Shown: in pieces, positions 322 to 28,000 of the stretch | Position numbering within the stretch: the first letter of the stretch is position 1 | Layout: each line of letters starts with the position of its first letter | Origin: Nemertoderma westbladi | Lineage: Eukaryota; Animalia; Xenacoelomorpha | Assembly (NCBI GenBank): GCA_032718475.1 | Contig: JAUCBJ010008450.1 | Location: 64,446-128,445, forward strand | Direction: 5' to 3' | DNA: 64,000 nucleotides | Notes under the pieces: model-generated | Told to the model about the DNA's origin: nothing | Databases searched by the model: none | Seen by the model: the letters and a program-made list of their open reading frames with translations, nothing else | Translations under genes and position numbers: made by a program

Positions 322-860
322 TGTGACGGGATCATCCGGAGATGAACCCGATTTATCCTGTTTTAGTTCACGCGTCCCCGCCGTGTGAAAGAGTGTAAGT
401 TGAGGTTACTGTTGTTCGTTATATTGTGATCTTGAGACGCGATATAGATATAGATATAGATTGATGTTATACACTGACGTTCACAGGTTGACGGGATGAC
501 GGTAACTAAAATCCCGGTACTTCCCTAATTGTAACTTACTGTACCACCAGTAACACTGAGATAACTGAGGTAATATGATTACTGCTTACTGGTTATATCG
601 CACGGTGGCCTTATTGCTACTCAATCGGTGCCAGCCCCCCTCTGATTGGTTGCTACCCTTGTTGGCGCCCTTTGAGGTGTTCCCGTTCACCCCAGCTATT
701 CTCTCCCTTGTCAGGATACTAACCCCTGACCCTTATTGTGTGCTTCTCCTTCCCATTCTGTTGGGGAGACACGAGTTGGTTTGGGACCTAATCTCGTGTC
801 CCCCAATATTGCTTATTGGCTTAACTTTGTGGGGTGTTGGCGGGATTGAATAAGCTAACA
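322..860 (-). repeat. 3' LTR of nested BEL/Pao element
   Basis: Direct repeat of 8061-8599 with TG/CA ends; preceded on the minus strand by the purine tract GGGGGGGAG. Confidence 0.95.
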
Positions 861-898
861 CTCCCCCCCATGCTATCTTCCCGGTAAGAAGATAGCAT
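861..898 (-). promoter_or_regulatory. Polypurine tract with adjacent 11-bp hairpin
   Basis: CTCCCCCCCA (861-870) abuts the LTR. Perfect stem ATGCTATCTTC (870-880) / GAAGATAGCAT (888-898). Confidence 0.75.
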
Positions 899-1467
899 CA
901 AACCATAAAGTGCGTTACAATCCCGCTGGATCCCGATCTAGCATCGGGTGTGGGGTGGAAATCTTTTCTTTTGGAGTCGGCTTTCCAGGCCGCTCCCTAT
1001 GGGTATGATGTCACTACCCTCTGGCGTCTCGTGTCGGGCCGATCGTGCGCTTCTCTCACACAATTTTTGTTTCCCCAACACTCTCACCATTCTAACTTCG
1101 CTCTCTAACTCAACTCGCTCTCTCCCCAAACTCGCTCTCTCCCCACTCTTACACTCTCCCCACACCTGAATCGCACTCTTAACTTCTCGCCAACAGCTCT
1201 TCTCACTATTTCCTCTCTAATCTCTGCCACTCTCTAAGGCCCTGACCTCTAATGCTACCCCTGTGCTATCATACTATCTACCTTATCTAACTTACTAACC
1301 CTAACTATCTAACTCTACTAACTTTTTTTTTAACTCTTACTACTTTTAGCTCTAACTAAAAGCCTCTAACTTTCTACTAACTCTAACTAGAACTCTCTAA
1401 CTTTCTGCTAAGTCTACTAACTCTTTTCTAACTCTGACTAAAATCCTCCAACTAACTCTATCTCTAT

Positions 1468-2045
1468 CTACGTGGCGCTAACGGTGCCCACAACCACAAC
1501 CGGTACTACGTACCCTCTTACTAACTCTATCTCCATCTACGTGGCGCTAACGGTGCCCACAACCACAACCGGTACTACGTACCCTCTTACTAACTCTACC
1601 TCCATCTACGTGGCGCTAACGGTGCCCACAACCACTCTACTACTAACTCTAACTAAAACCCTCTATCTACGTGGCGCTCGTGGTGCCCACAACCAATCTC
1701 TGCTACTACTTTCTACGTGGCGCTTCCGGTGCCCACAACCACTCTACCACTGCTACTTTCTACGTGGCGCTTCCGGTGCCCACAACCTCTCTCTCCTACT
1801 ACTTTCTACGTGGCGCTTCCGGTGCCCACAACCTCTACTACTACTCCTTTCTACGTGGCGCTTACGGTGCCCACGACCCCCCTACTACTACTCGTGGCAT
1901 GACAATATGCCACACTCCCTTACCCCGCCGCCTTCTAACTTACTCTCCTTCTACGTGGCGCTTACGGTGCCCACAACCCCACTACTACTACTCGTGGCAT
2001 GACAATATGCCACACTCCCTTGCCCCGCCGCCTTCTAACTCTACT
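1468..2045. repeat. Array of 9 copies of a 28-nt motif CTACGTGGCGCTnnnGGTGCCCACAACC with variable C/T/A-rich spacers
   Basis: Copies start near 1468, 1537, 1606, 1667, 1713, 1760, 1806, 1851 and 1951; the motif is an imperfect inverted repeat. Confidence 0.9.
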
Positions 2046-2203
2046 CTCCTATCTTCGAACTACCTCTTACTTCTACTAACTATTATTTTAATTATTTAAT
2101 TATTTATTATTATTTATTTTTATTTTTTAACTAAATAATTAATTTCTTGTGGGAAGGGCGTCTCGCCCTCATTCCCACCCCCCTCAGTCCAAATATTGGA
2201 CGA

Positions 2204-5200
2204 CTAAACTCTAAGCTGCCCCTCGATCTTCCATCGATTCTTCCATGAGGCACTGTCCCGCTGTCCCCCTGTGCGTCCTCTTATCTTTCCACCCACTTTC
2301 CTCGCCAATTCCAACTCATCTGGAATTGGCTCTCCCCCTTTCACCACCCCAAAATCGGGTCTCTCCACCGCCTTCTTAACTATGTCCTCTCTTGGCATCA
2401 AAATGCCATCTCTTTCTTTGTTGTCTCCCGCCGGCAGAATGAATAGAAAGTGAAAGAACAGGCAGAACAGTAGTCCTATTCCTTTCCATCCTGCCTTCCT
2501 TCTCGACTTCCCCCTTGTCGGTATGCCTCCAAACCGGACCTGCGTCTCTTCCGGACACTCCTCTGGACACTCCTCCAGACACTCCTCTAGACACTCCTCC
2601 CGACACTCCTCCGGGCACTCCCCCGGAGTGTTGTCCTCCGGACACCTCGCCGTCCGCTCCGCTCCATCTCCATACCGATGCTTGCTGGGAAACCTACTCT
2701 CCTCTGCCCACTTTCTTACTGTCACCTCCCTATTTTGCTCTACTATCTCTTGTTTCTCCTCTACTTCCTCTGCGCCTGCGGTGCCTGGTAACATGCACCC
2801 TGATGTCTCTGTCACACTGCATGGTATCTTAGTTTTAACTGGGCCGCTAAGCGTCCATCCGAACGGCGTGAGGATCGCCGTCGGGTCCCGCTGCCTGTCT
2901 TCGCCGAAGACCGTCTTCGTTCTCTCGTGGGCCGTCGGGCAGTCCATCCCTACTATAATGGACACCTTCCTAACGTCCACCTTTGGTATTGAGAAATCGA
3001 TACCGTCCAGGAATCTATACTGCTCGACCTCAATGTTGGTTGGTCGCCTGGCGTTGATGTTTATCGATTCGATGATGTGGATGGGGTCGATCGTCGCCCC
3101 ATAGTCGCATCCCGGTGCAATCGCTGCTATCCTGCACCGCCCCGCCCTCGTCTCCAGGACCTCATCTTTACTCGAGACGGTAGTCACCGCCATTCTATTC
3201 GGCCTTGTCTTTAGCCCTATCTCTTCGGCCACCCAGTTCTCCACCAGCGTGAAGGCTGCTCCGCTGTCGACCAGCATTAATGTCGTTACTGATCGACCGC
3301 CCTCTCCTGATATCTTTACTGGTACTACCCCGAGTAGTACTTTTCTCTTCTTCTCCTCTTCTATAGTGCTTGTGGCCATTGCCTGGCCTCCAGTCTCGGA
3401 CTCTCTGACTGCTGTTTCTCTACACTCTCCGTATCTGTGTCCCTCTACCACACATCGATGACATAGTCCGTTTGCGTCTGTGTAGGCTATACGATCTTGT
3501 TTGGGCAACGCTTGCCAGTGCTTACAACTACTGGTCTTATGTGTTCCGTCTCGATGTAATTGACATTCGAATCCTGGATTATAGCGTTCCCTGTATAGTC
3601 CCTCACGTATCGCGCGTAGGTTTATATGTACCGATTTAGTGTTTTGGTTGTCTGTACTCGGCCTACTGGGTATGTTGGGATTATGTTTATTTATGGTGTT
3701 ATTTTCTTTCTGTCCCCGCCACGGTGTGGCCCTGCTACCAGCTAACTGTGGACTAGCAGTCCCCTGTGTGGCCGCATGTGGTAGTGATTGTCCCACTCCC
3801 GAGAATGGGTCTGTCGGATTATATTCGGGTTCAGGCCAGTTGTATTCGGTCTTAGGTGCCTTCCCCAAACTATCCTCGCTATAGACTGGGTCTGTTATTA
3901 GTTCGGCTTCATAGTTCAAGAAGCTCGACATCTCTTCTAGGCCCGGTTCCACACCCTTCTCTTCCCGTGTGGAGAAAGCGATTTTCCTCCACTTCCTTCG
4001 TAACCAGATCGGCAGTGCCTGCGCTATCGTGGTGATGTTGTTAGACGCGTTGAGTTCGTATGGTGCGTCCAACGTCTTTAACACGATCAGCGCCTTTTCA
4101 ACTTTGTTAGCAAACGTCTTAATGCTAACGGGATTATCCTGTAGGCCACCCGTTGTTATGCCTCTCAGGGTTTGCCTGATGATCTTGGCTGGGTGCCCGT
4201 ATTCCCTGTCCAGTGCCCGCCATGCTGTCGTGAAGCCCCCTTCTATACCCTGGTATTGCCTCACGATGTCGTATGCTGGGCCTCCCGTGTATACTTGCAG
4301 ATACTTTAGGCACTCCGCCTGCGTCAAATTTTTTGTTAGTATCTCGTTGCTATACATGCGCCGAAACTGAAGATATTCTTCCGGCCTACTCCCATCGAAT
4401 TTGAATGGTTCCACGGGTGGTAACTCGATCCTTGTTTTTAACGCATCGATTAACGTGGCCATCCCCACTGCTTGCGCCTCTAATGGGTTCGATGGATGTT
4501 GCATGGTTTCCCTTGCTTGGTGCGGTCCACCCGTTCTATTCTCTGCTCTCCTCTGACTTGGGTATATCATTGGGGGTAGCGGCCCCCTCCATATTTCTGT
4601 GTCACACGATTTGTTTTCGTCCAAGGGATTCGTTCTCGCTTCTATCGGGGTATATTGTTGATATTGCGATGGGGGAATGTCACCCTGTCCCCCCCCCACC
4701 AATATGTTTGGTACTGGGGTTGATGTTAATATATTGGGGCCCATGCATTTATCCGCAATAATTCCCCCCTCCCCTGGGTATATGTTATAACCTTTGGTGC
4801 TGTAGTCATACTGCTGCACTGGTACCGGTATAGGCCTATCAGCTTCTGGCCTACCTACCGGAATGTATTCCGCGACTTCCGGGTCTAATCCCGTTGTCCG
4901 CGCTATCCTATCGCCTACGGTGCTCCTGTCAGCATGGCCTACGGTATGTGCAGTAAGGCCTGCAGTATGTCCTACAGTCTGTATGTGCTCGGAATCGAAG
5001 TTTATTCTTCTCGAATAGTCCTCCCCGCGGCTACCGTATTCTCGATCGGTAGGTACATCCCGACGGAAAGTTTCCCTTCGACCCCCTCTGCTGCTCTCTT
5101 CTTCGCGTCGGTACGTCACGTACCTCTCTCTCGGCGCGTAGTGCGCCTCGTCGGGTCGCGTCTCTCCGGGACGACGGCAATCTCCCGTAGTTCGACCCCA

Positions 5201-7992
5201 CCGACTCTCTTCTTCCATCTCAATCACCGACGGCTCACTATCCGTCCTCACTCTTCTATCGTTCGCGGCGATGCTTCTCCTATCATCTTCTCCTCTTCTT
5301 CCCTCAGTGCAGTATTCCCGCTCGTGAGATCTCTCGTTGACCTCCCGGTTAAACTCCACTGTTCTTCTTCTCTCTTCTGATCGGGCTTGACACTCCGTCC
5401 GCCCTCTCGCGGCGTCAACCTGCATCTCTCTGCTCGATCGCCCGCCGCTGGGGACACTCGCGGTCCCCCTATTACTTTCCGTCGCCGTGTGTTGCGGTTT
5501 ACCTACTTCGGCCCGCGCATTATCCGCCGACGCCTGTGGGACACTCTCTGCCCCCCCCCTCTCGTCACTAACTTCTCGCGGTGGGGTGCTCGTAGCCCCC
5601 CCCCACCCGCCACTTCTAACTTCGGTACCTCTTACTACACTCCTGTACCCTTCTTGTGGGGCGCTCTCCGCCCCCCCCTTCTCGCCGCTAATCTCACGTG
5701 GTGGGGCGCTCGGAGCCCCCCCCCACTCGCCACATCTAACTTCACTATTTCCTACCTCGTCTCTACACTTTTCTCCCGTCGACACAACATTTACATTGGG
5801 GCTGGGTCCGCTTACCCCCGCCCCTCTCTCCACTACTACCTGGCCTACCAGGCCTACTTCGGGTTGTCTCAACCCCGCCGATTCCGGCCTACTAACTACG
5901 AGGCCTACCAGGCCTACCTCGGGTTGGCCCAACCCCGCTACTTCCGCCCTACTGACTACGTGGCCTACCAGGCCCACCCCGGGTTGGCTCAACCCCGCCG
6001 TCTCCGGCCTACCCACTGCGTGGCCTACCAGGCTCACCCCGGGTTGACTCAACCCCGCCGTCTCCGGCCTACTTACTACGTGGCCTACCAGGCCCTCACC
6101 CGCCGGGCTATGTGCGTTGGACACGTCTACATTAATAATACCACTGTGATTATCCTGCGCACCAAAGCTAGAAACAATATGTTGCGTTATAACAGTATTC
6201 GGATTATTTTGTAAAATCGAATTCGGGTTATTATTTAAATTATTTGGATCATTTTGTGAAATCGAATTCGGATTATTACTTAAATTATTTGGACTATTCT
6301 GTATAACTACATCACTAGAATTACTCTGTACGTCAATATTAGAACCGTTCTGATTTAAAATAATATTATTACTATTAGGTAACGTATTTCCTGCAATAAA
6401 AATTTGGTTAGAGTCGTCCAATACAGTATTATTAATATTAGCGTTATCTACTGTATTAGTGTTATTACCCCCCCCGCTCGTACGATCACACCAGTTTCGT
6501 GTCCGTAGTGTGGTCCCTGTCAGTGGAGTATTAATAAACGTATCCACGGCCCCCGGCTCCTCTGAAATGTTCGAGCCTGCCCCTCTCTCAGACACTCCTG
6601 CCCGCGCCCGTTCCACCTCGCGCGCGTGTACAGCCGTATACTCTACGAATTTGTCTCGCTGTTTCTCTAACTCTATTTGGCCACTCTCCACTCTTGTTAC
6701 TTTCTCCTTTGACTCTCGTTTTTCCTGCTCGATCAATTCCAGCTCTCTCCTAATCCCCTCTCTTCTTCTCGCCTTACGCTCTTTGCGTTCACTTTCCTCT
6801 CTCGCCTCACGTTTCTCGCGTTCACTTTCCTCTCTCGCCTCTCGTTTCTCGCGTTCCGCCTCGCGTTTCTCCTCGCGTTCCCTTCGTTCCCTTCTCTCTC
6901 TCGCCTCGCGTTCCTCGCGTTCTCTCTCGCGTTCCGCCTCGCGTTTCTCGCGTTCTGCTTCGCGTTTCTCGCGTTCTGCCTCGCGTTCTCTCTCGCGTTC
7001 CCTCTCTTCCCTCAACTCTATCTCCTCACATTCCCTAAGGTTCCTCGCGGCCCTTTCGCCCCTCTCCCTCAACTCTTTAATCGACACCGTTTCCCTCTCT
7101 AGCATCACTCTCCCCTCCTCTAGCCGTCTACCTAGTTCTCTATTCGCCTCTACCACTACATTGAAACGGTGTCTAGCCTCTATCTCTCTCACCCGTCTTT
7201 CTTTTTCGGAGGATGTAACAGACTTATCGGTTGCGACGGATTCCCTCCGCCTTCCCGACCCGCTGGCTCTCCCCCCCTTTCCGGAACTCCCTCCGACCGA
7301 CGAGACCGAACCCGCGGGGTCAACCTCGGGTTCGCCCTCCTCTGGTCTGTTCCAACCTACTGTCTTTATACCCCGGGCATCGATTAAGTATGGCCCTAAG
7401 TACACTACCCTAGGTTCTATACTCCCATACCGCCATGAGTCATACAGCTCGGCGACCCAAGTCGCTCTCTCCTCGGCCAATCCTCTCTGCCCGAAGCGCA
7501 CTAGATAATATAAATGTATCTGTTCGACTCACCTAGTCGTCTCCTCAACTTCACCTGGTCTATCTCAGCCCCTCCTCTAGCTTCCTTCAGTTGTTCCCGG
7601 GTCGCGGCGTAGGCTCGTCGAAGTCGATCAGAAACCCCGACATCCTCGTCGCCGACCTCTCCTCTCTCCCTCCGGGTTCGGCGTCGTACCGTCGGCTCCA
7701 CCGTTGCCGTTCCGGTGGGCCGTTCGTCGCCCTCGGTCTGTGGCTGACCGGCGACATCGGCATATCGACCGCCGCCCTGTGTCGACTCGTCTCTTTCTTC
7801 CTCGAGCCCGATCTCTCTATCCTCCGGCTCGATCTCTGGTTCCAGGCGGTCCCCCTCTACTCGAATCCCCGGTTCGCCCGGTACGGATGGCTCCGGTGTC
7901 GTGGGCGTATGTCGCCTGGTCGCGGCCTCGCGGATCGTTAGATCGTCGTCGTCCGGGGTCCGCGTGGGTGTCACTTCACCCGACTCGCTCAT
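2204..7992 (-). CDS. Gag-protease polyprotein of nested BEL/Pao element, split by a frameshift near 7501-7525
   Basis: ATG ORF 7992-7501 overlaps the 1765-aa ORF. Contains an E/R coiled coil, 20-aa repeats (GLVGHVVSRPETAGLSQPGV), gag core PVEPFKFDGSRPEEY..AWRALDREYGHP, knuckles CQLH..H..C and CHRC..GH..C, protease LVDSGA, BEL-typical TPFGWTLSGP, then a hydrophobic segment and stop. Confidence 0.88.
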
Positions 7993-8060
7993 CTTTTGTC
8001 TGTTGGTGGCTGGTGGTATCTGAGTCTATTAGGCTAGGGCAGCAGTTGTTGTTTAGTTAC

Positions 8061-8599
8061 TGTGACGGGATCATCCGGAGATGAACCCGATTTATCCTGT
8101 TTTAGTTCACGCGTCCCCGCCGTGTGAAAGAGTGTAAGTTGAGGTTACTGTTGTTCGTTATATTGTGATCTTGAGACGCGATATAGATATAGATATAGAT
8201 TGATGTTATACACTGACGTTCACAGGTTGACGGGATGACGGTAACTAAAATCCCGGTACTTCCCTAATTGTAACTTACTGTACCACCAGTAACACTGAGA
8301 TAACTGAGGTAATATGATTACTGCTTACTGGTTATATCGCACGGTGGCCTTATTGCTACTCAATCGGTGCCAGCCCCCCTCTGATTGGTTGCTACCCTTG
8401 TTGGCGCCCTTTGAGGTGTTCCCGTTCACCCCAGCTATTCTCTCCCTTGTCAGAATACTAACCCCTGACCCTTATTGTGTGCTTCTCCTTCCCATTCTGT
8501 TGGGGAGACACGAGTTGGTTTGGGACCTAATCTCGTGTCCCCCAATATTGCTTATTGGCTTAACTTTGTGGGGTGTTGGCGGGATTGAATAAGCTAACA
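8061..8599 (-). repeat. 5' LTR of nested BEL/Pao element, with candidate TATA (8332-8336) and initiator (about 8302-8307)
   Basis: Repeat of 322-860; on the minus strand TATAA lies about 30 nt upstream of TCAGTT. Confidence 0.93.
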
Positions 8600-11019
8600 G
8601 GGCACCTAAATACTGCGTGGGTATTATGCCCGCAAATAATACAATTTCGAATTCTTGTTTTGGTTTGGCTTATACTCGGTATCGCATCACCATCCTGTGA
8701 ATACTGAGCCGCGGTTTCACTATGAGATACTTTCCCCTTAGTTTCACCGGATAGGTTCAGCATTTTCTTTGGATTGGTGTTTTGCAATGCAACTTCTGTA
8801 TTCAATGTGGTAATTTTCGGTCGTTGCTCTATGTTTGATTTATACTTGTAGTCCTGCGGCGGTGTATGTACTTGTCTGGCTTCTGTATTAGAATAAGTGT
8901 AGACGGGGTCATTCATAGTGTCGGCTTCTTTCCGTATGAATTCGGCTAACTCGTGTAGCGTAGGTTCATGATGCTTATGTGTGCGTATATCGCCCGCTAC
9001 GCGTCGCCAGCGGCTCATCACATTGGGGGGCAGGTTTGCTGCAACCATACGCAAGTTTGCTGTGGAGTTCATTTCTTGCGTATTATTAAAATGTTGTAAA
9101 ATTATAGCCTTGTTTCTTACTTTATCAGCGTAAGATCTAAACTTTTTCTTACACTGCTCGAAAGATCCTGAAATTAGATCGACCTTATCAGTTAAGTCTC
9201 TAAGAGTGTGTTCTACAATGACACTAGGGTGACCGTACCGGTCGTGCAGTATTTCCCAGGCTCTGGTGTACCCGCCGCTCAAACCTGAAAGGAAGGATAT
9301 TAAGTGCAGAGGTTCACCTGTTAAATAATTCAATAAATATGAAAATTTCTCCATTTCTGTAAAGGGTTTCAGGTCCACTTGAGCTCTAAAGGTTGCTGTG
9401 AAGGATATGTATTGCCCGGGGTCACCACTAAATTTAATGGGTTCAAGTTGAGGTAAGGTCAATCTTGTGTTTAGTTTGTCTAAGGCGGAAAATGTTATCT
9501 CAGCAGCAGAGTTGTTCAATTGAGTGAACTGTGATGGTGTAGACACGTATGTCTCTGCAGGAGCAAATGGTAGTTCATTACTGTAGTTTTGATATGGTTG
9601 TCTATAGCCAGAATGATAGCCCGTGCTGTTAATGCAAGATGGGTCTCCTGCTGTAGGTATATTTGTATTGCTTACGGTGTTTGTAAAGTTACATGGGTTA
9701 GAACCAACAGATTGGATCATACGGCGTGACGTAACTTGCCCGCCCGCACTGGCGATCGAAACAGATGGTATATACGCAGGACAGTGCGCATTTAAAGGCC
9801 TATTTGTTGGGCTAACATAGGCATTTATATCTGTAGTTCTAGTTAACCCTCCCTCATGTGTACTAGGCCTACTATTTATAAAGGGGGCTGGATTACGTGT
9901 AGGATAACTAAAGCTATTCGTCATCGTGTGTATAGGAGATATTCCTATATTTTCGGCGGGTGCCATATTGCGAGGTGCACTCTGTGTGTAGATTATTGAC
10001 GACATAGATGTTTCCTGAGATTTACCGACGATGTCTTGTTTTGTAGTGACTGGTTTGTGGCTTGGTTCAATATCTATATTATCTGTTAATTTATAATTTA
10101 CACTAGCATCCAGTGTACCACCATTATTTTCCTCTTCTGCCAATTCTGTAGCTAATTTTAGCGCGTTTAATTTGTCTCTCTGTTGACACAGCTTTCGCTC
10201 GCTCTCTAGATCTCTAATTTGTTTCTCACGTTCTTGGTCTCGAATTAATTGTTCTAATTTTAAGCCTTCTAATTTTTCTTGAGCTCTTAATCTGGTAGCA
10301 GTAGACGCAACTGAGCCCGACCTACTACTATTTACAGACGCTCGGTCATGTGTGGGGCGCTTTGGGTTTTTCAATGGAAGTTGCGCCGATGAAAATTGAC
10401 CATCAGTAACGCTAATAGTGGGCTTATGTAAAACATTATCTGTAATATAATTATTATTATCCACAACGGCTGCAGTTGAACCTGAGGATATAAGGTGAGA
10501 CATTTCTTGTAGATCCCCCTGGAGAGCTACTGCTAGCACTTCAAATTCTCCCTGAAGCTTATTCGCTTCATTAGAAAAATTATTGTCATATAATTTTTCT
10601 ATAAATACTTGGTAGGCTTCGCATATCCTGTTGTAAGAAGTTACACACTCCTTATAGGTTGGAGGCACTAAGTCTAAACCTCCCGGTTTTCGTATATCCT
10701 GAAAGAAAATGTTTCTTTTCTTGGAAAAATATCCTTTATGACCTGCAATAGAACGGTTAAATACTTCTAAGTCTGGAGGGTTTTGTACACACGTGGTCCC
10801 TGAGTTTCGAGCCCTGGCACCTGCGTCATTTCTATCACGACGTAGAGTGCGGTTACTGGCTTGTCCAAGTGCAGAAGCATTGGACATACCTTCAGTCCCA
10901 GTGGGTTCGTACGTGTTATGTGGGCCAACTAGTACCGTTGATGTACGGGGAGCGTCAATAAACTCACCTTCATTTCCGTCGACTTCACAGTCGTCGAAGG
11001 CCGTCAGTGTTTCATCCAT
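8600..11019 (-). CDS. N-terminal and core gag of host BEL/Pao element
   Basis: 819-aa ORF; the last ~13 aa are read-through into the inserted LTR. DUF1759-like motifs and the first knuckle are present. Confidence 0.9.
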
Positions 11020-11208
11020 CCTGAACTCGAGCAGCTCGATTATCCTCTTGAAACTCGATTTGTAAGCTGTAGTTTATCGTCCGGATCCACCACTTACAAC
11101 TGCTACTGTATCTACAATATGTATTTAACAATGCCTAGTAACCAAATATATGGTTATATTCTGATCAACCGTAAAGACGGTGTTAAAAAGACTGGTGTAT
11201 CTTTTTAC

Positions 11209-11725
11209 TGTGAGCGTTTTTTACTTTAATCGCTCTGATTCTGTCAGTTATGCGTGATTTAATCTTAATGACCGAAAAACATTGTGATAACATAATAGTA
11301 ATAACAGGAATGTTTATTGAAGAATGTTAGAATTTAATATCATCAAAATATGTTCGGTAAAAAGATACACTTCGGATTCCCTAATAACAGAATGAATTTC
11401 ATCGCGGTTGTTAGTTGATTAAATAGGTTGAGATACGAAGGGACAGGGAAGTTGTAAAGAAGAGCTGTCATAGGTCAATGTGTCTTATTGTCATTGTATG
11501 CGGTATTAGAGCTGGTGATAATTGGCGAGAGTTGAATAGTGAATGTAGCAATTAGATTACCCGGCCAAGAATGTATAGTAGTAGATATCAGCTGATATTA
11601 TAAACATTATATTATATTGTATGCTAGCGGTTGGATTTTGTGGGCTAATATGCTCGAGCTGACTTGTTACAAGCATTGTACGAAATAAGGGGTATTTTTT
11701 TACTGGTCATGTACAATCTGTAACA
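11209..11725 (-). repeat. Probable 5' LTR of host BEL/Pao element (~517 bp)
   Basis: Minus strand starts TGTTACAG exactly where RTE-like coding sequence breaks (KSIKTNSAS|) and ends ..CTCACA followed by GTAAAAAG. The partner LTR is not in the window. Confidence 0.7.
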
Positions 11726-11850
11726 ACTGGCACTATTGGTCTTAATGCTCTTTGCAGCAGCCTTCACTTCTGTAAAGGAGATATCACCAATGGGAATATC
11801 TGGGAGTACAGACTCAGACACGTTCGTGGGGCCTTCGCACAGCACTAGGC
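11726..11850 (-). mobile_element. RTE LINE fragment
   Basis: LPDIPIGDISFTEVKAAAKSIKTN, homologous to FTDIPIGEISFAEIKTATRSIKTN at about 15790-15860. Confidence 0.7.
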
Positions 11851-12087
11851 CCAGTTATGAGATACAAATTAAAATTGAGCGACTGTATCACAAAATCAGT
11901 AGTTGAGAAATTTAACCACACCGCCAATCAATCAAAGACAGGGGGACAGTACATGTTCAGCCCTTTTAATCTGCACCCCCCCCCCCCCCCCCCCCTCCTC
12001 CCCTTCACACCAACCAATACATAACCGCGACATCTACCACCCACGGGCTGAAGGGGCGGAAGGGTAGCGCAAACTTATTTCCAATCG

Positions 12088-13029: not shown

Positions 13030-16000
13030 GTAAGTCAATAATAACTTATAATAAAATTCTTCCTTAATTCTTTGGTTAATAATAATCATAATAGTAAGCT
13101 ATATAAGATGTTCAAGTTTCTTTCCCAGTTGGTTCATCATGCTGGCCTGGTATCCCCTGGTATCAACTGATCTGGACACGCAGTATAGGAACTCACACTG
13201 TATGTAAAGCTTTCTTTTCGGGGGAAAGTATGGTAACAATGAGGGAGTGGGAGACGTTCAATCGGAGGGCTGCAAATGCCTCAATATCCAAAAGGGATGC
13301 AACTCTTTCACATCAATGTGAGCTGTGTGAATTAACCACAGCGGTAGATACATCATCCTGGCTGAATTCCAAACCCCTTACACTCCAGGATACCAGATAA
13401 CAGATTGACAAGAAAGAGTTCCGCGATGCTCTTTGCCTTCGATATGGTTGGACTCAGAAGAACCTCAGTGTTTTAAATGTTCTGTTGTATCCCACTGGAG
13501 GATTCCCCACCATCAGAGGATTCCCCACGATCATCAACACTCCCTAGAGGTAGCCCATAGCAGTGGAATACCTACTGTAGCCATTATTGGGGTGTGAATA
13601 GGTGAGATGGAGCTAGCTATGGAAATCTACACAAATTTTCTCTGCCATTGGTGGTGCTGCTCCATCTGGAACTCATTTTGTTTCATGCTTGCCTAAAAAT
13701 TTTCAGAAAAGCTGGAGATCTGATCTATACTCTGCTGGGTTTGACATAAGTTGACATTCTCGATAATGCATTCAGTGTTGCTATGCCTCATTGGGTGATG
13801 CTCTACATCGCATCAGCCAGTGTAGTGCAAAATAGCAGACACATACATCCTCCTAGCCATCACCCACTCTTACCCAGAGATTGAACTAAAAACTCTACCA
13901 TCTACAAAATTTAACATTTGTTTTGTTGTTGCATATTTTTAACAGTTTGATATATCATAATATTAAATATATTAAAAGTTAAGAGCAAAAAAAGGCTTGT
14001 CTCAGGGAATGGTCAGGTATTGTTTTTTGGAGAAGATATCCATTAATGGTATGGGATGGATGAAGACATAGTCTCCGCGCTAGCAGAATTACGAAATCAG
14101 CCTTGTCATGGAATGACTGGTCCTCTGTGTGCAACAGTCCAGTGTGAGATCCGTCTTTACACTAAAGCTGAACAACAGGGATGAGGTTCTCATCTGTGAG
14201 GCAACAGTACACTGCGAGGGCTATACCATCTTCAAAGAAGCAGTTAAGTTAGCAGCTGCAGAAAGAGTTCCTGCATACCCTCGAAACGGATGTAGGACAA
14301 TTCGGTCCCGGACAATTCGGTCCGGACAATTCGGTCCCGGACAATTCGGTCCCGTACATTTCGGTCCCAAAACACTAAATAAATGGGACCGAATTGTCGG
14401 GGACCGAATTGTCGGGGACCGAATTGTCGGGGACCGAATTGTCCTAGGACCGAATTGTCCTAGGACCGAATTGTCCTAGGACCGAATTGTCTGGGACCGA
14501 ATTGTCCGGGACCGAATTGTCCGGTTCCTGATAGCAACTTTTTAGTGCTTTTTTGATATTGGTGAATGTTCTAGAATATTAGTAGAGATATTTGTTATGG
14601 TAGCTAGTCTTATTTACTTGCTAGAATTTTTTGAAATTTTAAAAATACTGTATTTTTTTTTTATTTTTGTTATTGGAAGAGAATATTATTATATATTATT
14701 TATTAAGGTGTAGCTAGTGTTTTTATTTTACTAGCTAGCATTTCCTTGAAATTATAAAAACACTTGTGAAAACATTGATATTTCAGAATTAGGCCTAAAC
14801 TGTTGCTGATTATATTAATTACCAACAATATTGATGATATTATAACAGTCCCTGAATGAGATCCAGCTATTATCTAGGATAATAGTTTAGGCTTGTTACC
14901 AACCAACAACACATACAGTATACTTACGCAGTATATAAAAAAATTCAGCTTTAAACATTTTAAATACATACTATTACTAGCTAGTAAATAATTCAAAAGC
15001 TCCATAAAAACACCATAGCTACCATAAATAATAATGTTAACAAAAAAAAGTAAATTTTTTTTATTTTTAAAAAAATACTAGCTAGTAAAAAAAACACTAG
15101 CTACCATATAATAATATATATTAAGGTTCTAGAACATTCACCATTATATAGTACCAATTAAATTTGGTCCCGGACAATTCGGTCCTGGACAATTCGGTCC
15201 CGGACAATTCGGTCCCGGACAATTCGGTCCCGGACAATTCGGTCCCATTAAAAAGCATGTTTTGGGACCGAATTGTCCTAGTCAGTATCCGGACAATTCT
15301 GTCCCGGACAATTCGGTCCCAAAACACAAAATTAATGGGACCGAATTGTCCGGGACCGAATTGTCCGGTGCCGAATTGTCCGGACCGAATTGTCCGGGAC
15401 CGAATTGTCCTGCTTCCCGTCGAAACAGGAAAAAGGTCCCCAGGACTGACCACAGAATTCGGAAGTGCATACTGATAGGCATACGAGGGCAGACAAGGAT
15501 GCAGTTAAGGCTGCTTCTAGGTCCCTTAACAGACAGTGCGCTGATAATCTGAAGGAGCTTATCAATGAGCAGTTTGAAGCCATTAACAATCCTTATGATA
15601 GCAGGCAATCAGTTCAGGTATGATAATCAATAAACCAGCTCACTGGGAGGAAAAGCCAACCAACCACCAAGGTTGCAGCTGAATCTCCAGCTGAATGCCT
15701 CAGAGGTTGGAAGGCACACTTTGAGAAGCTTCTAAACAATGACAAGGATTGTCTGATAACTTTGAGGTACATCATATACCTAAATCTGTGTTCACAGATA
15801 TCCCCATTGGTGAAATCTCCTTTGCTGAAATCAAGACTGCAACTAGGAGCATCAAGACCAATCGTGTCAGTGAAGTAGTAGTGAAAACAAATAAGTTTGT
15901 CCCAGCCCCAAAGAAGGACAACAAAACAACCCATGGATCTTTTAGTGGAATCTCGCTAATCTCGATTGCTGCAAAGCTATACAACTGAATTCTATTAAAT

Positions 16001-19000
16001 TATATCATTGATAGTAACAATGTGTTGGCAAGCTGTATTTATCGAGGTGTTTGTTATTATACATTTATTATAGGAAGGGATCTAGGGGTCTTAACCTCGA
16101 ATGGGCCATTCGAGGTTAAGACCCCTAGATCCCTTCCTATAATAAATGTATAATAAATTATATCAGGGATCCTGTTGAGAGACTGTTACGTGGGAACCAA
16201 AATGGGTTCCCTAAAGGTTGTGGAACCATGGAGTCTATTCTGGCACTTATAAGGATAATCGAAGAGTTATCAATAAAGAAAGACAGTGAAGTGAAATCCC
16301 AGAGTCCCTAGTTTCTCTAATAAAATGTTATGGTCAATGGAATTAAACGGAATAAATTTAGAAAACCGACCGCAACATATTTGTTTTTATCCTGTTGGTC
16401 GCACCAGGTTTCAGTAGCTAGGGTCACTGCGTCTGTGGCCGAGAAACCTTTCCGAAAACCAAATTGTCTGGGATAAAATTTGTTGTTTTTATTTAAGTAT
16501 GCAGTCATTTGATCCAGTAGTATTTTTTCAATAATTTTAGCAAAAGGTGAAGTTATGGCAATTGGTCTATAATTTGTTGGGCCTTTTTTAAATACGGGAA
16601 TGATGTCAGCTAATTTAAGTCTGTCTGGAAATTACAAGGTCCAGAAGATTTATTTGAGTTTTGGTTACATATTACAGTATCTAAGGTAAGGGAAGAAATG
16701 CAATTGAAGGAAAATTGTTGACTGTGTTGTACTGTAGAAACCGCTGGGATAATTAATGGCATGGATTTATTTACATTTTGTGAAATTTCTACAAATTCTC
16801 CTAAACGAATAAATCTGTAAGTACCGGGATTTTTTTAACTTGCATGACAATCCATCTCTCCAGTAGTAAACCAAACCCACTCCACAATGATGAGGTTGTT
16901 AATCCCTCATCTGATGAAGTTCAGGAAATTGTTCCCCCCAACTGGGAGTGTGATGCAGGACCATGTATGCCGAACCAAGGTTTGCAAAACTCTTGGAATC
17001 ACTGTCACGGTCGTCCGGGAAGTTATGGACGAAATAAAATTCCAGTCTCTAATCAATTTAACCAGCTTGTTGGGCTGGATTCGCCCCTTACACCTGGCAG
17101 TGGTCCAGGCCACGTTCCCCCATTGGGATCTCAAGGTGTTGCCGAGGCCGACAACAATAGTCGTATGTCCTGATAAGATGCTGCTGTAGGTACCCCACCT
17201 GTAACACATCGCAGCCCTTTGTCAGAGGTAGTCTATACAGACAGTCAGTGTAGGCTGATTGACAAGTTGGGGTTTACCGTCATTGGTCCTAATGGGCGAC
17301 CGATAAAGTTTACACAGCAGCGCCGTGCCCTGGTGCACACACCAGTGGAAACAGAAGTTCAGTCTTCTAATCATTCGGGTCTTGGGTCCAATAACAACTC
17401 CAACAGTGGTAGACACCGGCAATAGCGGATTCCTACTAAAGGTACATGTACATCAGTGGAAGGTCTCGAATCGATACCGATGGCACAACGTTCAAGGAAA
17501 TTATATCTCTCTGGGATTGCCCCAAATGTTGATCCAGATAAATGCGGATTCGATGGTCAATGTGACAGTGCCACATCGCTGGACACCAGGTGGTCATGTT
17601 TCATTATTACATGTAAGGAGGGTGACCACGATGTTTAATTACAGCCAGATAGCTGGCCTGTTGATGCATCTATTCACTTGTATTTTTCTCCTAGGAATCC
17701 TCCTGTCACTAGACCTAATTTGGGTTATCTCTTCTCCTTCAGGGTCTCCTAATCGGGAGGGGTCTCCTAAGTAATGATTGTAATTGATATTTTTACAAAA
17801 ATAATTTATACTTTTTATATTTATATATATATTTTTTACTATCTTTTTATAAATAAATGCAATGGATAATACAAAGTTAAATATAGCAAGCTATAACTGT
17901 AATTCAATCAGGACAACACAGTCTAAAATAATCATTAATGAGTTGTACAATAGCTTTGATATTTTATTGCTCCAGGAATTGCAACTTCCTAAACAAGAGC
18001 TTTCAATTCTCTCTAATATTAATGATGAGTTTTTGGGTCAAGGGTTCTCCCAGACTGATTATGAGTCAGGTCTACTACGTGGTAGATCAGCCGGCAGCCT
18101 AGGCTTTTGGTGGCGGAAATCTCTGGCTCATGCTATTGAAATTGTAAACTTTAATGATCCCCATATGTGTGGTGCAATTTTAAAGTTAACAAATAAGGAT
18201 AAACTACTTATAATAAATGTTTACTGACGCGACCTTATGATTGTTGTGAAAATATAGATTTGTTCAGTGATTGTCTAGGTAAACTTAAATATCTTCTTGA
18301 AATGGAAAATTACTCACACTGTTTAATTATGGGTGACTTCAATGCAGACCCATTTAGGGAAAGGTTCCGTAAATTTTCTCAGTGGTGTAATACTTCAAAT
18401 GTTACTGTAGCTGATGTTATGTATCTGCCCCGCGATAGATGTTCATGGGAGTACATCATGGCTGGATCACGGTGTTTGCTCACCTACATGCCTAGATCTG
18501 CTAAGCGAAGTTAAGAATGTTTATTATCTTGCTATATCGGATCATATGCCAGTTACTTTGTCGTTGAATGCGGATGTTTCACCTGCAGACAGCACTTGTG
18601 ACAATAACTGTATAAATTCATTAAATTATTCTGAGTCTGATTTCAAATTCTATTCATGGACTACAAACTTTTGAATTCCAAGAAGTCAAAATGTATATGT
18701 CACATTCCGAAATCTTACACAGTCACTCGCTATGCCAATATTAAATTATATGGTGCGAATATCGAAATCGTGGACTCTTTCAATTATCTAGGTCACATTT
18801 TGTGCTCATCCACCGATGATGACATCGACATTACCAAGCAGTTGCACTTGTATGCAAGAGCAAACTCTCTTGTGAGAAAATTTGGTAAAGCATCCATTTG
18901 TGTCAAGGTTGCGCTTTTTAGCGCTTATTTAACCCCAATTTACAGCAATAGCCTTTGGGCTTAGAGTAACTACTCACACCGTGTCCATGAAAAGACTGTG

Positions 19001-22000: not shown

Positions 22001-25000
22001 GAAGGAGACAGCACACTCTACATATGTCATTACCAGTACCGAACCAAGGACTGGACCGGTTTCACTCATTCTGTGGCTGCATACACCTAGTAGGCCTACG
22101 TATGCAATCTGTAGGAAGCAGACAGCACACTACATATGTTGTTACTGGTACTGTACCGTTACCAGTACTGGTATAATATACGATTTCTAACAAATATAAC
22201 TTCGAAACTTGAAAATAATATGAACATATTCGTTTTAAATAAAGTACCTGTACTTCACTTTCAGGCTCTCGTTCACTCTCATTTCATTCTGTAGCTCGTT
22301 CATGGAAATATCCCCACTCGAGCTGGTATGATACTGTGCTACTATATTTAAATAGAATTATATTATTGACTAAATTGCACCAGGCAGTAATATTCTCACA
22401 TAAATTTATAATTAAGTAATTAAGTGTCGCTATGAAGCATATACTACTACTATTTAATTAGTAACTACCTATACTAAATTTTAAGTCATTAAGTAAGGGT
22501 CGCTATGAAGCTAATACTACAGTACTGCTATTTAATAATGAAATAATAATAAACTGATTTAGTTTCATGATAATGTTAAATAACTAGTTTTTTCTGAAAA
22601 TCAATATTATATGTAATTTGTAATGGAGTAGATTCAAACAGCGCACCGTATCAGAGTAGATAATGGCGTCAAGGGATGTTCAAAATCCTCCAGTATGGTA
22701 TTTGGTAGTCCTTGGTATGCAGTTTACAGATACTGTATCTCATTGAAGATTAAAAGTAATTTTATTTGTCTCTTTATTAATTTACATTTATTATTTTAAG
22801 ATCTGCAATGAAATTACATTGTATGATGAACCCTACTTTGGCGGTAAATCAAAAACGCTGTTTGTTTCTGGAGGGTACAAATATCTTGGGGACCTCGACC
22901 AAAAAACTTCTAGTATTCAGGTTAGATTTTCATAATGCAGCTCCTTTCATCTGCTATGGAATTAATAATTGAGTAGAATGAAGAATGAGACATGAAAGAA
23001 GATTATATACTATTATTTCCGAATTTGGTAGAACAGCCACACCCCCCTGCCCCCCTCCCCCTTTTCCTTCTAAACGCCCTCCAATATTTCTGTATACTTC
23101 CAATTCTCGCTGCTGTTGGGTTCCACTAGCATTGCTATTTTCTCAACTGTGTATGCAGCGTTCTCCCTCCAATAACTCACAATTATTACACTTATGTGCA
23201 AATTTAATTTTAATCTTTGGAACTAGCGTAAGAAGTAAATACATGTTAACAAATAAATGTATAAAGAAAATAAACTAATCATATAATTGAATTTATACCA
23301 CTATATTAGTATAAATACTAATGGTATTTATTTAACCTTATAGATTAGGTGTGGATCCTGGATTCTGTACACAGGAATCCTCTTCACCGGAGAATATATC
23401 ATCCTCGACCCAGGTAGCTATGAACGATCCATCGATTTCGATCCTTATTTTGAAAACAAGATACGTTCATTAAGGCCCTTACCAGAGGTTAGATACCATT
23501 AATTAAGTTTAAATAATCTTTACTATTTATTGTTTGATGGTGAATAAAACAATGATGGAAAAGTATCATTGTATAATGTGGCTGACAGCCAATATGTTTT
23601 TCTACTGTATAAAACTGAAGGTTACAGAAGTCAGGAACTGGAGTCTTCAACCCCTAATGAAAACTCTTAATGTAATCCAAAGTACAAGATTATGCACTGG
23701 CTGGTCCTCACGGCGAAGGCAATGTCCTGCAAAGCGGAGGCGATTTTGTTCTAGTGTCAAGCTTGGGGGAATCAATGAGACACCTCCAATGTTATATAGT
23801 GTGTGGTTGGAGATGTGTGCATTTTACTTGACACAATGTACCCGGCATAGCATTCTTGTGAATGTGCCATCCAGAGATTTGGTGTCCTCAGCAGATAGAG
23901 CCCAGCATGGACTCCCATATAGGAGTACTGCAACTACTGCTGCTCTAAATAATCGGACCTTAAGTTTCCGATTAATTCTCGGTGACTTTCAAATCCTTGA
24001 AAGCCTATTCAAGGCTGCCCATGCCTTTCCCTTACGTATTCGAAGGTCCTCACCTGACTTCCGGATCCATGATCCCAGGTAACAGAAGTCATCCACATGC
24101 TCAAGCATACCATCTTTTGAGCTTATGCTCATCCGATCAGAGACTTGTTGAGGACTTTCAAAGTTAACTGTCAAAATTTTGGTCTTTCTGGAGTTAATAA
24201 AAAGACCAACACTAGAAGCAGCATGTTCTAATGAGCTGAGGAGCCATCAGCAGTCATCAGCAAAGTCTAGATCAGTTAGGTACTTGGCAGGATTTCCTCG
24301 ACTTCTGGAGCCAGTAGCTGGAGTTATCATCACCCCATCATCATTATGATGATCTAAGGACATGCGTAGAACATAGTCAACAACAATTATGAACAGGAAT
24401 GGTGCAAGTGTGTCTCCCTGGAGGACGCCCCATAACACTTCAAATGGTTCTGTGTCACCGTCAACAGTAGACACAAATGTTGTCGAACCATTGTATACTG
24501 ATCTGATTGCTGCAATAATTTCATCAGGAATCCCATATAATGAAAGTATGCTGAACATACGTGAGCGAGAGACTGAATCAAAGGCCTTGAAGAAGTCAAC
24601 AAAGATAACAGCCAGATGCCTGTCTTTCTAATAATAATAATAATAATATAATAATAATTTCTTTATTGATCCTTAAAACCAGAGAATTTATGATAAAAAA
24701 TTGCACTGGGCATTCAATGTATACACACTAAATGATTATTTGGAACAATAGCGTCAGTGTACAGGAGCAACTATGTTACTCCTATGTATGTAATACCGGA
24801 AATAAGACATGTACAGTAGATATAATAAATAAATAAAAAAAATTTAGTTGAGCACAAATATTACTACCCCCCCCCCCCACCCCCGCTGAACCATGCAGAA
24901 ACCTTGGTTTCGTTATGGAGCAGTTACCCCCCCCCCCCCCCCCCCCCCCCTCCCTCTGGCAGACAATAAAGAGCCTCCAGCTAAGTTACTTCTTCTCGAC

Positions 25001-28000
25001 TGTATTTACTTAGAAATATATTTTTTAAATGTCGTTTAAAAGTTGCAAGGTTTGGTGACTTGATTACATCGATATGGAGCGAATTCCATAATTTTACCGA
25101 TTTCACAATTATACTATCGTGACCAAACCTATTTTTAGATTTTGGAATAACGATATTCCCAGTTCGTGGATTTAACCTAATATTGTTTTTTGCTAAAAAC
25201 GGCAGATCCAAAGTTTTAAAAGCTTCTGTAAGCTTATGCATATATTTGTAAAAGTATATAAGCGCATAATATTCTCGAACTGCAGAGAGTAACGGAATTT
25301 CGCCTTTCTGCCTCAACTCCGTTCCACTGCTGTCGGTAATTTTCTTCCCGAAAATAGTGCGTAATGCGTAATTTTGTACCTTTTCAAATTTATAAAGCAG
25401 TTCCTTTGAACCATGTTTGTCATGGAGAGACACAAGCAGCTGACAACAATAATTATGATAGGGCATAGTAAGCGTTTTATATAATTGCAATTTAGTTTTA
25501 TTGGGCAATTGACCCTTTATTATTCGTAAACAAGAAATGGTAAGAGTCATTTTTTGGATCATTTTCCCTATGTAATCTTTCCAATTTAGCTCGTTATCAA
25601 TGTTCACTCCCAGATATTTTACTGATGGAGATTGTGGAATAGGTTCAGGGCAGCCTACATTTAATTTTATGGATGAGAAGTCAGCTCTATTTTCTGGGCT
25701 GATTTGCTTCGGAGATAAAAGGAGAAATTCCGTTTTGTCTGGGTTCAGTTTCAAATGAGAATCATTAAATATTTTTTGAATTTTCTGAACATTCGACTCT
25801 AACAATTTTGTAGCTTGTTCTGGATCTGAGTCAGCCACATAAATAACTGTATCATCAGCATACTGTATAATTGAAACATTTGTCAGTTGTTCTGGAATGT
25901 TATTGGTATATAGCATGAATAATAGAGGCCCTAAAATGGTACCTTGGGGAACGCCCCTTGTTTCAGTTAGCCAATCAGAAAAAGTATTTTCTACTTTAAC
26001 ACGTTGCTTCCTTTTCAATAGGTAATTTTGTATGAGGTTCAGTGCAGTCGAGTGGAAGCCTAAATGTTTGAGTCTGTGATTCAAAATGTCATGATTTATA
26101 GAGTTGAAAGCTTTGCTTAGGTCTAAAAATGCGGCTGCGACAAATTTGTTGTCATTCAAATGTTGACGCCAATTCTCAGTTAAGTAAGTAACTGCATCAA
26201 CAGTAGAAAATCCTGTTCGGAAACCAAATTGTTTTGGGTATAAAAGCTTATTATCTTTGACATATTCAAGTATTTGAGAACACATAATTTTTTCAACAAC
26301 TTTGGCAAAAGGAGACGTTATTGCAACTGGTCTGTAGTTCGCAGCATCAAATAGATCACCTTTTTTATAAATTGGGGAAATATTCGACAATTTTAGATGG
26401 TCTGGGAATAAAGATTTCGTCAAACATTGATTTATTAGAAAATGCAACGGGCCCGAAATGTGAGATCGAATTTCCCTTATTATTTTTGTAGGTATTTTAC
26501 AAGGTCCAGAGGACTTATTTTCATTTAATTGATCAATTCTATAGTCTACTTCTAATAGACTCACGCATTTAAATGAAAAATGAGCTCGGTTTTGTACGGA
26601 GTCGACTGGTAGGGTATAAATGCCCATATTGGTCGACGAGCAATTAAAAAAGTTCCCTAAATTTAGAAAAGTTTCATTCATGGCATTTGATAATTGTTTT
26701 CTGTTAGTTATTAAAATACCTCTGTATTTGATACAGTTAATGGAGGCACTTTTGATTTTATTATTTATAATTTTATTAATTATTTTCCACCTTGATTTGC
26801 TGTCCCTGGCACTCAGATATTTATTTTTTACGAAATTATTCTTTAGTTTATTGTTCAGATTATTAAACTTATTTCGCAATAATTTGTATGCTTTGTAATC
26901 GTTATCACTTTTTGTACGGCGCCAAAGTGCAAATTTTTTATATTTATTGGTTTTTAACTCATTAAGTTCATCTGTTGCCCAGTCATCTCTCATCATATTT
27001 TTATTAGGAATGACTAGTTTACGTTTCATAGGGGCATATTTATTCAGTATTTCCACTATCTGATTTTCAAAAATCTCAAATTGTTTATTGATATCATCCT
27101 CAAGATAAAAATCATTCCAGATAATATTCTCAATTTCATTTAAAAAGGCACCTTTGTTAAAATCAGTAAAATTCCTATACTCAATCCACTCGTTGTCTTT
27201 CTTTACCATTTTATTAAATTTATGTTTAATTGATGTCACTGTGTAATCATGATCTGAGAAATCGCATAAATATACACTGCCAGTGGAATTAGAAATAGTA
27301 GTTCGATTCAGACTAGTTATTACCACGTCTAAAAGTGTGGAAGTTTTATCCGTGGTTCTAGTTGGCACTGTTGTATTTGTTAGGTACAATGTATACAAAT
27401 TTAAGATGTCATTGAGAGCTGAAAGTCTCGTATTATTAACTCCTGAAGTCCCCAAAATGTTTACATTTAGGTCACCTTGGATAATTAATTTTTTATTTGG
27501 TTCCAGAATTTGTGCATTTTCAATTTCCTCTGAAAAACTGTTAAAAAAGTTAGTATTTATTTTAATTCTAGTTCTGGGCGGACGATAAACAGTGCAAACC
27601 AAAATATCGTCTATTTCCACCCATATCGATTCTAAAACCCCGTTAGTTTTGATATCGGGTCTAACCCTACTATTTATATGTTCTGGAACATATGTTAAGA
27701 CTCCACCCCCCTTCCTTCCCCTTCTGTCTTGCCTATAAATTTTATAACCGGGAATGGCTACTGCTTTATCGCTAATATGTTTCTTTAACCACGTTTCGGT
27801 TACAGATAAAATGCAGTTATTTGAACCCCTCAGCAAACTGCGTACATGATCGATATTTTTAAATAAACTTCTAGCATTTATTTGAATAAAATGAAATGTT
27901 TGACTGTTAGACCGAATAAAAGATTTCAGATCTACCTGTATATCATCAATCTGAGGGCCAGGGTTCGGGTGGATGTCTCCAGCTAGAGCTAATAGATTGT

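Follow-up and report, generated by a model that had tools for sequence, protein, structure and literature searches.

Two BEL/Pao retrotransposons, one nested in the other, with a fragment of their own RNA as the likely primer of reverse transcription

A BEL/Pao element nested in the gag of another

The window, that is, the whole 64,000-nt stretch of DNA that was analysed, carries two LTR retrotransposons on its minus strand, one inserted in the gag of the other (Table 1). The nested element is delimited by two LTRs of 539 bp each, with one mismatch between the copies and TG...CA ends, and by a 5-bp target duplication (TGCCC, at 8600-8604 and 317-321). Beyond this insertion the Cys-His region of the host Gag picks up again at 321 and then leaves the window. 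The TG...CA LTRs, target duplication and purine tract expected of a complete element are all found in the nested element; the host element was judged on its 5' LTR alone. ARAGORN found no tRNA genes in the 64,000-nt window, and Rfam gave no matches at 7800-12000.

Both elements were assigned to BEL/Pao on their coding content. Of the BEL/Pao-type Gag (DUF1759), Cys-His region and aspartyl protease, DUF1759 was found in both elements and the protease in the nested one, and a homology search matched the window elements to full-length Pao-peptidase polyproteins. The Pfam content of the nested element consists of DUF1759 and the aspartyl protease only, and 120 BEL polyproteins used as queries gave zero matches to pol within it. 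BEL/Pao-type RT, RNase H and integrase are thus absent from the nested element; those of the host would fall outside the window, and they are present in the relatives used below.

The boundary of the host LTR, which the initial annotation had drawn from a single LTR, is now fixed independently. The match to a dispersed flanking repeat ceases at 11725, marking the LTR start, and diverged LTR copies start matching at 11209, marking its end. Logan contigs from two studies stop at 11238, 30 letters inside the LTR, presumably at a graph branch point; one of the runs may be the window's own source. Given the AATAAA of the host LTR, an R overlap would remain for strand transfer; no canonical AATAAA-type signal was found at the corresponding place in the nested LTR.

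Table 1. Coordinates of the two elements and of their putative priming features in the window
Feature	Position	Strand	Remarks
Nested non-autonomous BEL/Pao element	322..8599	-	Twin LTRs and target duplication; Gag and protease without RT, RNase H or integrase; sits in gag of host element
Nested 3' LTR	322..860	-	Preceded by purine tract at 861-869
Nested long ORF	2204..7528	-	1774 aa: low-complexity N-terminus, Gag core (DUF1759), Cys-His region, aspartyl protease
Nested short first ORF	7501..8025	-	ATG at 7992; overlaps long ORF in a different frame
Nested duplex, leader arms	8010..8039 (8035-8039, 8010-8018)	-	Exact complements
Nested primer-binding site (putative)	8052..8060	-	GTAACTAAA; flush with LTR end
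Nested 5' LTR	8061..8599	-	539 bp; 1 mismatch against 322-860
Nested LTR partner, predicted primer 3' end	8241..8249	-	Exact complement; predicted cut between 8241 and 8240
Nested GT...AG stretch	8245..8278	-	34 nt; occupies the place where relatives have an intron
Nested duplex, upstream (LTR) arms	8262..8289 (8262-8266, 8281-8289)	-	Predicted pair probabilities 0.89-1.0
Nested TATA-like (8336-8332) and initiator-like (8307-8302) words	8302..8336	-	From sequence; start predicted near 8305
Host gag ORF	8600..11073	-	DUF1759; first ATG 11019; cut at 8600 by nested element
Host primer-binding site (putative)	11195..11208	-	GTAAAAAGATACAC; flush with LTR end
Host 5' LTR	11209..11725	-	517 bp, TG...CA
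Host AATAAA	11313..11318	-	39 nt downstream of predicted cut
Host LTR partner	11357..11370	-	14-nt exact complement; predicted cut between 11357 and 11356
Host TATA-like (11425-11419) and initiator-like (11395-11390) words	11390..11425	-	From sequence; start predicted near 11393

Pairing between the post-LTR site and the LTR

The nested 5' LTR ends in CA, which is followed directly by GTAACTAAA. The initial annotation had described four complementarities between such post-LTR sequence and the LTR itself, one of 14 nt in the host element and one of 9 nt with two further helices in the nested element, and all four proved exact on the minus strand. Its statement that the duplex reaches exactly to the LTR boundary was borne out as well, both sites being flush with the independently fixed LTR ends, and neither window element has a tRNA-type TGG in the 9 nt next to its LTR end.

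Among 20,000 dinucleotide-shuffled nested LTRs, 28 contained a complement of the post-LTR sequence of at least 9 nt, and the 14-nt complement of the host was reached in 0/20,000 shuffled host LTRs; a 14-bp inverted repeat anywhere across the 676-nt region of the host arose in 4/1,000 shuffles. Among the variants listed for contigs from related nested copies, with indels listed in part, there is no alternative letter in either arm of the 9-nt terminal helix (8052-8060 and 8241-8249); the contigs vary at 8040-8051, 8081-8098, 8211-8230 and 8279-8289. The TATA-like and initiator-like pair that had been noted upstream of each partner is present in both elements, but its words are no closer than consensus-like, and the transcription start near them is a predicted one.

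Predicted folding fails to single out the priming helix in either element. The nested priming helix has a pair probability of 0.36-0.44 in the predicted fold if the RNA starts at 8306 or 8320 and of 0 if it starts at 8255, with a competing helix at 8100-8107, and the predicted probability of the host priming helix ranges from 0.01 to 0.97 with the span folded and the temperature. In a scan for leader binding along each LTR, the best segment contains the partner in both elements. The best 66-nt segment of the nested LTR starts at 8304-8305, on the initiator-like word, and that of the host LTR reaches -21.8 kcal/mol vs -11.5 kcal/mol for the best non-overlapping segment. These scores were equalled by 1/200 and 2/200 shuffled leaders, a comparison biased toward the observed value because the scan moved in steps of 6 for the shuffles but in steps of 1 for the observed leader.

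The 34-nt GT...AG stretch of the nested LTR is possibly the relic of an intron. Its splicing was rejected as improbable: once the stretch is removed, the terminal helix is lost and the duplex energy drops from -38.3 to only -17.7 kcal/mol, the donor-like word bears indels in related copies, and the stretch is not skipped in any DNA contig.

Own-LTR pairing and split partners in related elements

A search with the host Gag led to one full-length polyprotein, the RT region of which gave 2,893 homologues, and the 120 listed were used. Alignment of 47 homologues yielded 78 loci from marine-type metagenome contigs, the best of 470 confirmed stretches. RT-RNase H identity among the families of these relatives is 35-85% (median 52%). 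Two scans of viral contigs returned no relative, and prokaryote genomes contributed two contaminant loci; one of these, L080, carries a same-type site with only 170 nt of upstream sequence, its partner being absent from the contig.

Six loci (L014, L023, L025, L027, L037 and L076) retain both LTRs, which diverge at the 3' end, so that the LTR end is set without reference to the pairing. No TGG follows the LTR end in any of the six. Two of them pair unspliced, over 11 and 10 bp. Only 5-7 bases match directly in the other four, where the short match begins immediately downstream of a pyrimidine-rich AG and the bases that complete it directly precede a GT donor farther upstream. With junctions allowed, each of these six families, whose LTR ends are independently set, has 10-13 bases paired with its own LTR; two pair unspliced and four across a splice junction.

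A strict rule (GT[AG]AG donor, ACA end, offset 0-6) was applied to 42 of the 78 loci and the two window regions, which gave 43 regions since one lacks the ACA; the remaining 36 loci, with <350 nt upstream of gag or no gag, were left out. A junction-spanning match of at least 10 bases was found in 18/43 regions vs 9/1,796 swaps, and 20 of 38 families reach 10 by either route vs 62/1,796 swaps.

A relaxed rule, chosen after the strict-rule failures had been viewed, admits wider donors, end motif and offset, scores three loci on their 3' LTRs and takes one representative per family by alphabetical pick, for 32 metagenome families; L003, L011, L019, L033, L039 and L070 were dropped, also after the data had been viewed, for a misplaced start codon or LTR. 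Under this rule, 28/32 families pair 10-13 bases with their own LTR in letters that differ between families, vs 75/1,122 swaps between families by either route (unspliced 10-bp matches alone, 63/1,122). Conservation of the complementarity across related families, a test that the initial annotation had named, was thus passed. In 22/32 families the match appears only when a GT-AG intron inside the LTR is taken out, and six pair unspliced. Junction-spanning matches arose in 12/1,122 swaps, 8 of these 12 with sites identical or near-identical to the other family's own, and in 0-1/34 cases when the junctions were shifted by 2, 4 or 6 nt. The terminal helix of the nested window element, at 9 bp, is under the 10-bp line applied to the relatives.

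The four families that fail the relaxed rule are represented by L016, L038, L044 and L058. L038 passes with a 542-nt intron, which extends the range of intron lengths in the relatives' LTRs from 75-423 nt under the relaxed rule to 75-542 nt, and L016 passes by eye with one G-U pair; in L044 and the L057-L061 family the pairing is below the rule. A held-out test on the 3' LTRs of 11 pairs added one new family (L069 with L070, 11 bp across a 360-nt intron). In the rest of this test L026/L027 repeated a known family, two L057-L061 pairs gave 8, five pairs with only 99-315 nt of LTR gave at most 9, and two had no 3' LTR. The intron is present in 3' LTR copies: L014, L025 and L076 were scored on the 3' LTR, and L027 has the intron in both LTRs.

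The pattern also emerged with fewer constraints. When upstream regions were scanned with the LTR end not imposed, the top match fell just after an ACA-like end, usually across a splice junction. Dropping the splice rules left GT..AG as the bounds of the best two-piece complement in 15/21 cases, a count in which the site positions come from the constrained search and ties are scored as matches.

Of the 30 sites of the two window elements and the 28 related families, 25 open with a G-C pair and 5 with A-T, and pairing declines past position 11; in this tally pairing at the first positions holds by construction, and the row of L041 is mislocated yet counted. In spliced coordinates, C occupies -14 in 16/27 relatives and A occupies -13 in 21/27, and a CA just upstream of the paired stretch (-14/-13) is found in 22/27 vs 5-6/27 in three upstream control windows. 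This CA may be an initiator, which would give a primer of ~13 nt with 11 bases paired. It is not found in the two window elements.

Probable priming by the element's own RNA and its alternatives

The pairings are real, far beyond chance and conserved as self-priming predicts. With a probability of roughly 85%, both window elements are BEL/Pao LTR retrotransposons that prime reverse transcription with a piece of their own RNA 5' end. The proposal in the initial annotation of tRNA-independent self-priming in a BEL/Pao lineage gains support from the own-LTR pairing in relatives and from the missing TGG, with the start and the cut predicted.

By analogy with Tf1, transcription would start shortly upstream of the LTR partner, and the capped RNA 5' end would fold back and anneal to the post-LTR site. 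RNase H would then cut after ...AC, and RT would extend the freed 3' end; for the pol-less nested element, the RNase H would be supplied in trans. RT would copy U5 and the remainder of R and then transfer to the RNA 3' end. In the relatives, a cap-proximal GT-AG intron in the LTR would be spliced out before annealing. As the partner is split by this intron in most relatives, a primer of ~13 nt would there be made by splicing. Because daughter LTRs would take their primer region from the 3' LTR of the RNA, the intron would be preserved; were this 3' copy spliced as well, the daughters would lack the intron, as do the host element and six scattered relatives. In the nested element, the short primer seems to have been swapped for a ~65-nt duplex beginning at the predicted start. 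Taken together, it is probable, on the sequence evidence, that a widespread Sinbad-like BEL/Pao lineage has dropped tRNA priming, that the spliceosome builds its 11-13 nt primer by removing the LTR intron, and that this intron passes to new copies by way of the 3' LTR, which stays unspliced, and has repeatedly been lost, the window pair being intron-less forms.

A duplex that is real and conserved could instead serve packaging, dimerisation or translation control, as a check of RNA splicing, with another primer in use. The duplex lies only 20-45 nt ahead of the gag ATG in several relatives, and the outer helices of the nested element are predicted to be more stable than its terminal helix. This explanation is nevertheless improbable. 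Minus-strand synthesis must start at the LTR end, and the duplex stops 0-6 nt from it. An alternative primer site is missing: 0/30 of the window and related sites have a TGG no more than 9 nt from the LTR end. The predicted primer 3' end is nearly fixed, with A at -2 in 27/27 and C at -1 in 22/27 relatives, as a cut site would show, and the modal paired length, 11 in 15/27 relatives, equals the Tf1 primer length given in PMC7175516.

Still less probable is priming by a host tRNA fragment or other small RNA, as in half-tRNA-primed Copia, which would make the LTR complement a by-product or a regulatory mask. The sites of some relatives begin with GTTCGAA, which we take to resemble a tRNA T-loop. 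Half-molecule tRNA priming is known in Ty1/copia lineages, according to PMC6317226. Against this, 28 different 10-mers occur among the 30 sites, each matching its own LTR and rarely that of another family; the sites thus track each family's own LTR and splice junction, unlike what a set of host RNAs would lead one to expect. A final alternative, that the pairings are chance matches or LTR-boundary artefacts, is negligible: the host boundary originally came from one LTR and AT-rich LTRs yield the unspliced 10-bp swap matches counted above, but both boundaries are now independently fixed and the shuffle, swap and shifted-junction controls stand against it.

Self-priming of the kind favoured here has precedents outside BEL/Pao. 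In Tf1, bases 1-11 pair with the site, and the RNase H cut falls between bases 11 and 12 (PMC7175516); the same mechanism has been proposed for Tj1 (PMC4600332), and self-priming has been predicted for Tcn1 and for the TAR lineage of Ty1/copia (PMC6317226). The self-primers named in the available portions of PMC3601003, PMC6934838 and PMC2864245 are only fungal and chromovirus. As in Tf1/Tf2 of Schizosaccharomyces pombe, Tj1, and the Tf1/sushi and Tcn1 chromoviruses, the site after the 5' LTR of the window elements complements their own LTR with no tRNA site in evidence, and the modal paired length of the relatives is that of Tf1. The location of the partner at the transcript 5' end is, in our case, predicted from the TATA/initiator-like words in the window and from the CA at -14/-13 in the relatives. 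The two groups differ in descent, Tf1/sushi elements being Ty3/gypsy whereas the window elements are BEL/Pao by their DUF1759 Gag and fall outside Ty3/gypsy Gag/Pol. They also differ in primer length, 11 nt in Tf1 vs ~37 nt (host) and ~65 nt (nested) from the predicted start and cut. A partner split by a splice junction, as in 22 of the 32 BEL/Pao families, is not described for Tf1-type systems in the source text available. Self-priming in the plant TAR lineage (Houba, Osr-1) is likewise predicted from sequence and likewise outside Tf1/sushi; TAR belongs to another superfamily and other hosts, and the available part of PMC6317226 describes no intron-split primer for it.

The ICTV profile of Belpaoviridae describes these elements as tRNA-primed, with an 18-nt site complementary to tRNA-Arg or tRNA-Gly, and their replication as poorly understood (PMC8742986); the 2025 update, in the part available, concerns species renaming only (PMC12451622). 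The window elements resemble Belpaoviridae and Sinbad in their DUF1759 Gag, Cys-His region, protease, TG...CA LTRs and 5-bp target duplication, and lack the 18-nt tRNA site, a departure from the description and not from the descent. A term search for PBS, tRNA or priming found no occurrence in three BEL/Pao surveys (PMC554778, which is the Sinbad paper, PMC6238403 and PMC3118150), and the literature searched, mostly outside subscription journals and Repbase Reports, yielded no account of BEL/Pao elements that self-prime or have an intron-split primer.

If true, self-priming in BEL/Pao would join the Tf1/sushi chromoviruses and the predicted TAR copia lineage as a third case. It would bear on how often tRNA priming was lost and would explain the failure of PBS finders on these elements. 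Self-priming is known elsewhere and would be new for a family thought to be tRNA-primed; the candidate splice-built primer of the relatives is the surprising part. Because the primer match would be created only by intron removal, reverse transcription would be gated by splicing, which would tie retrotransposition to host splicing control and give a rare instance of an intron kept inside an LTR. The predictions are exact as to start site, junction and cut, and can be tested in existing marine-invertebrate RNA data.

On the RT-RNase H tree (midpoint-rooted, with no outgroup and with L030 left out), the six intron-less families never group, which requires 6 separate changes, 5 of them forced by well-supported branches; this scatter fits repeated loss better than a single origin. 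The relatives carry an RT motif, H[VLI]FGG, for which a term search of the domain file of de la Chaux and Wagner gave only four families, each of them classed there as Sinbad (PMC3118150, supplements S4 and S6). This is a lead to the Sinbad superfamily and not a placement, as the trees contain no named references. Both window elements are of the intron-less type. Their placement is loose because neither has an RT within the window and their Gags are only ~25-31% identical to those of the relatives. Among the sampled proteins, the two window Gag cores pair together with a support of 89, in a quick tree that has no tRNA-primed outgroup and includes three proteins from a Gag profile search.

Coding content and mobility of the nested element

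The nested element, the BEL/Pao retrotransposon inserted in the gag of the host element, is a member of a non-autonomous BEL/Pao family that was mobile recently. It encodes Gag and protease, and no reverse transcriptase (RT), RNase H or integrase was found within it. Its LTRs are near-identical, and it is deeply covered by the DNA runs. A short ORF shares 28 nt with the long ORF in a different frame, an overlap that may reflect a frameshift, a small intron or a mutation.

LTR ends and copies in related loci

Among the related metagenome loci L002-L076, the spacer between the end of the 5' LTR and the primer site, the stretch complementary to the element's own LTR, measures 0, 3, 4, 5 or 6 nt depending on the family. 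This implies that integrase would trim the DNA end to a variable extent across families. DNA contigs from three runs contain a diverged version of the host LTR, with differences across the primer region.

One related locus (L035, 1-15890) carries a single element in head-to-tail copies that share LTRs and are 100% identical, an arrangement that may be either a tandem array or an assembly artefact. BEL/Pao sequence also occurs in two bacterial metagenome-assembled genomes (L079 and L080), most likely as eukaryotic contamination of these assemblies.

Other repeats and open frames in the window

The remaining features include two RTs sharing ∼64% DNA identity, the first in a LINE flanked on both sides by a direct repeat. 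Neither the ORF upstream of the LINE ORF nor the open frame at the window edge has a Pfam match; the latter contains an Ala/Glu/Lys-rich repeat and is possibly the Gag N-terminus of a further retroelement. The palindromic subrepeat block is foldback- or MITE-like.

Coordinates of features in the window
Feature	Position	Description
Nested element	322-8599	
Long ORF	2204-7528	
Short ORF	7501-8025	174 aa
Host LTR stretch with the primer region	11346-11456	
Subrepeats	14278-15417	15 bp, palindromic arrangement
Palindrome	16054-16156	103 bp, near-perfect
Direct repeat	24499-24629, 30660-30790	131 bp
LINE	within 24981-30455	endonuclease and RT, 1300 aa
ORF upstream of LINE ORF	within 24981-30455	471 aa
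Tandem repeat	43908-44630	unit ∼162 bp, diverged
Tandem array	45506-46689	49-bp unit, 24 copies
Second RT	48094-50433	
Open frame	61883-64000	at least 706 aa, continues beyond the window edge
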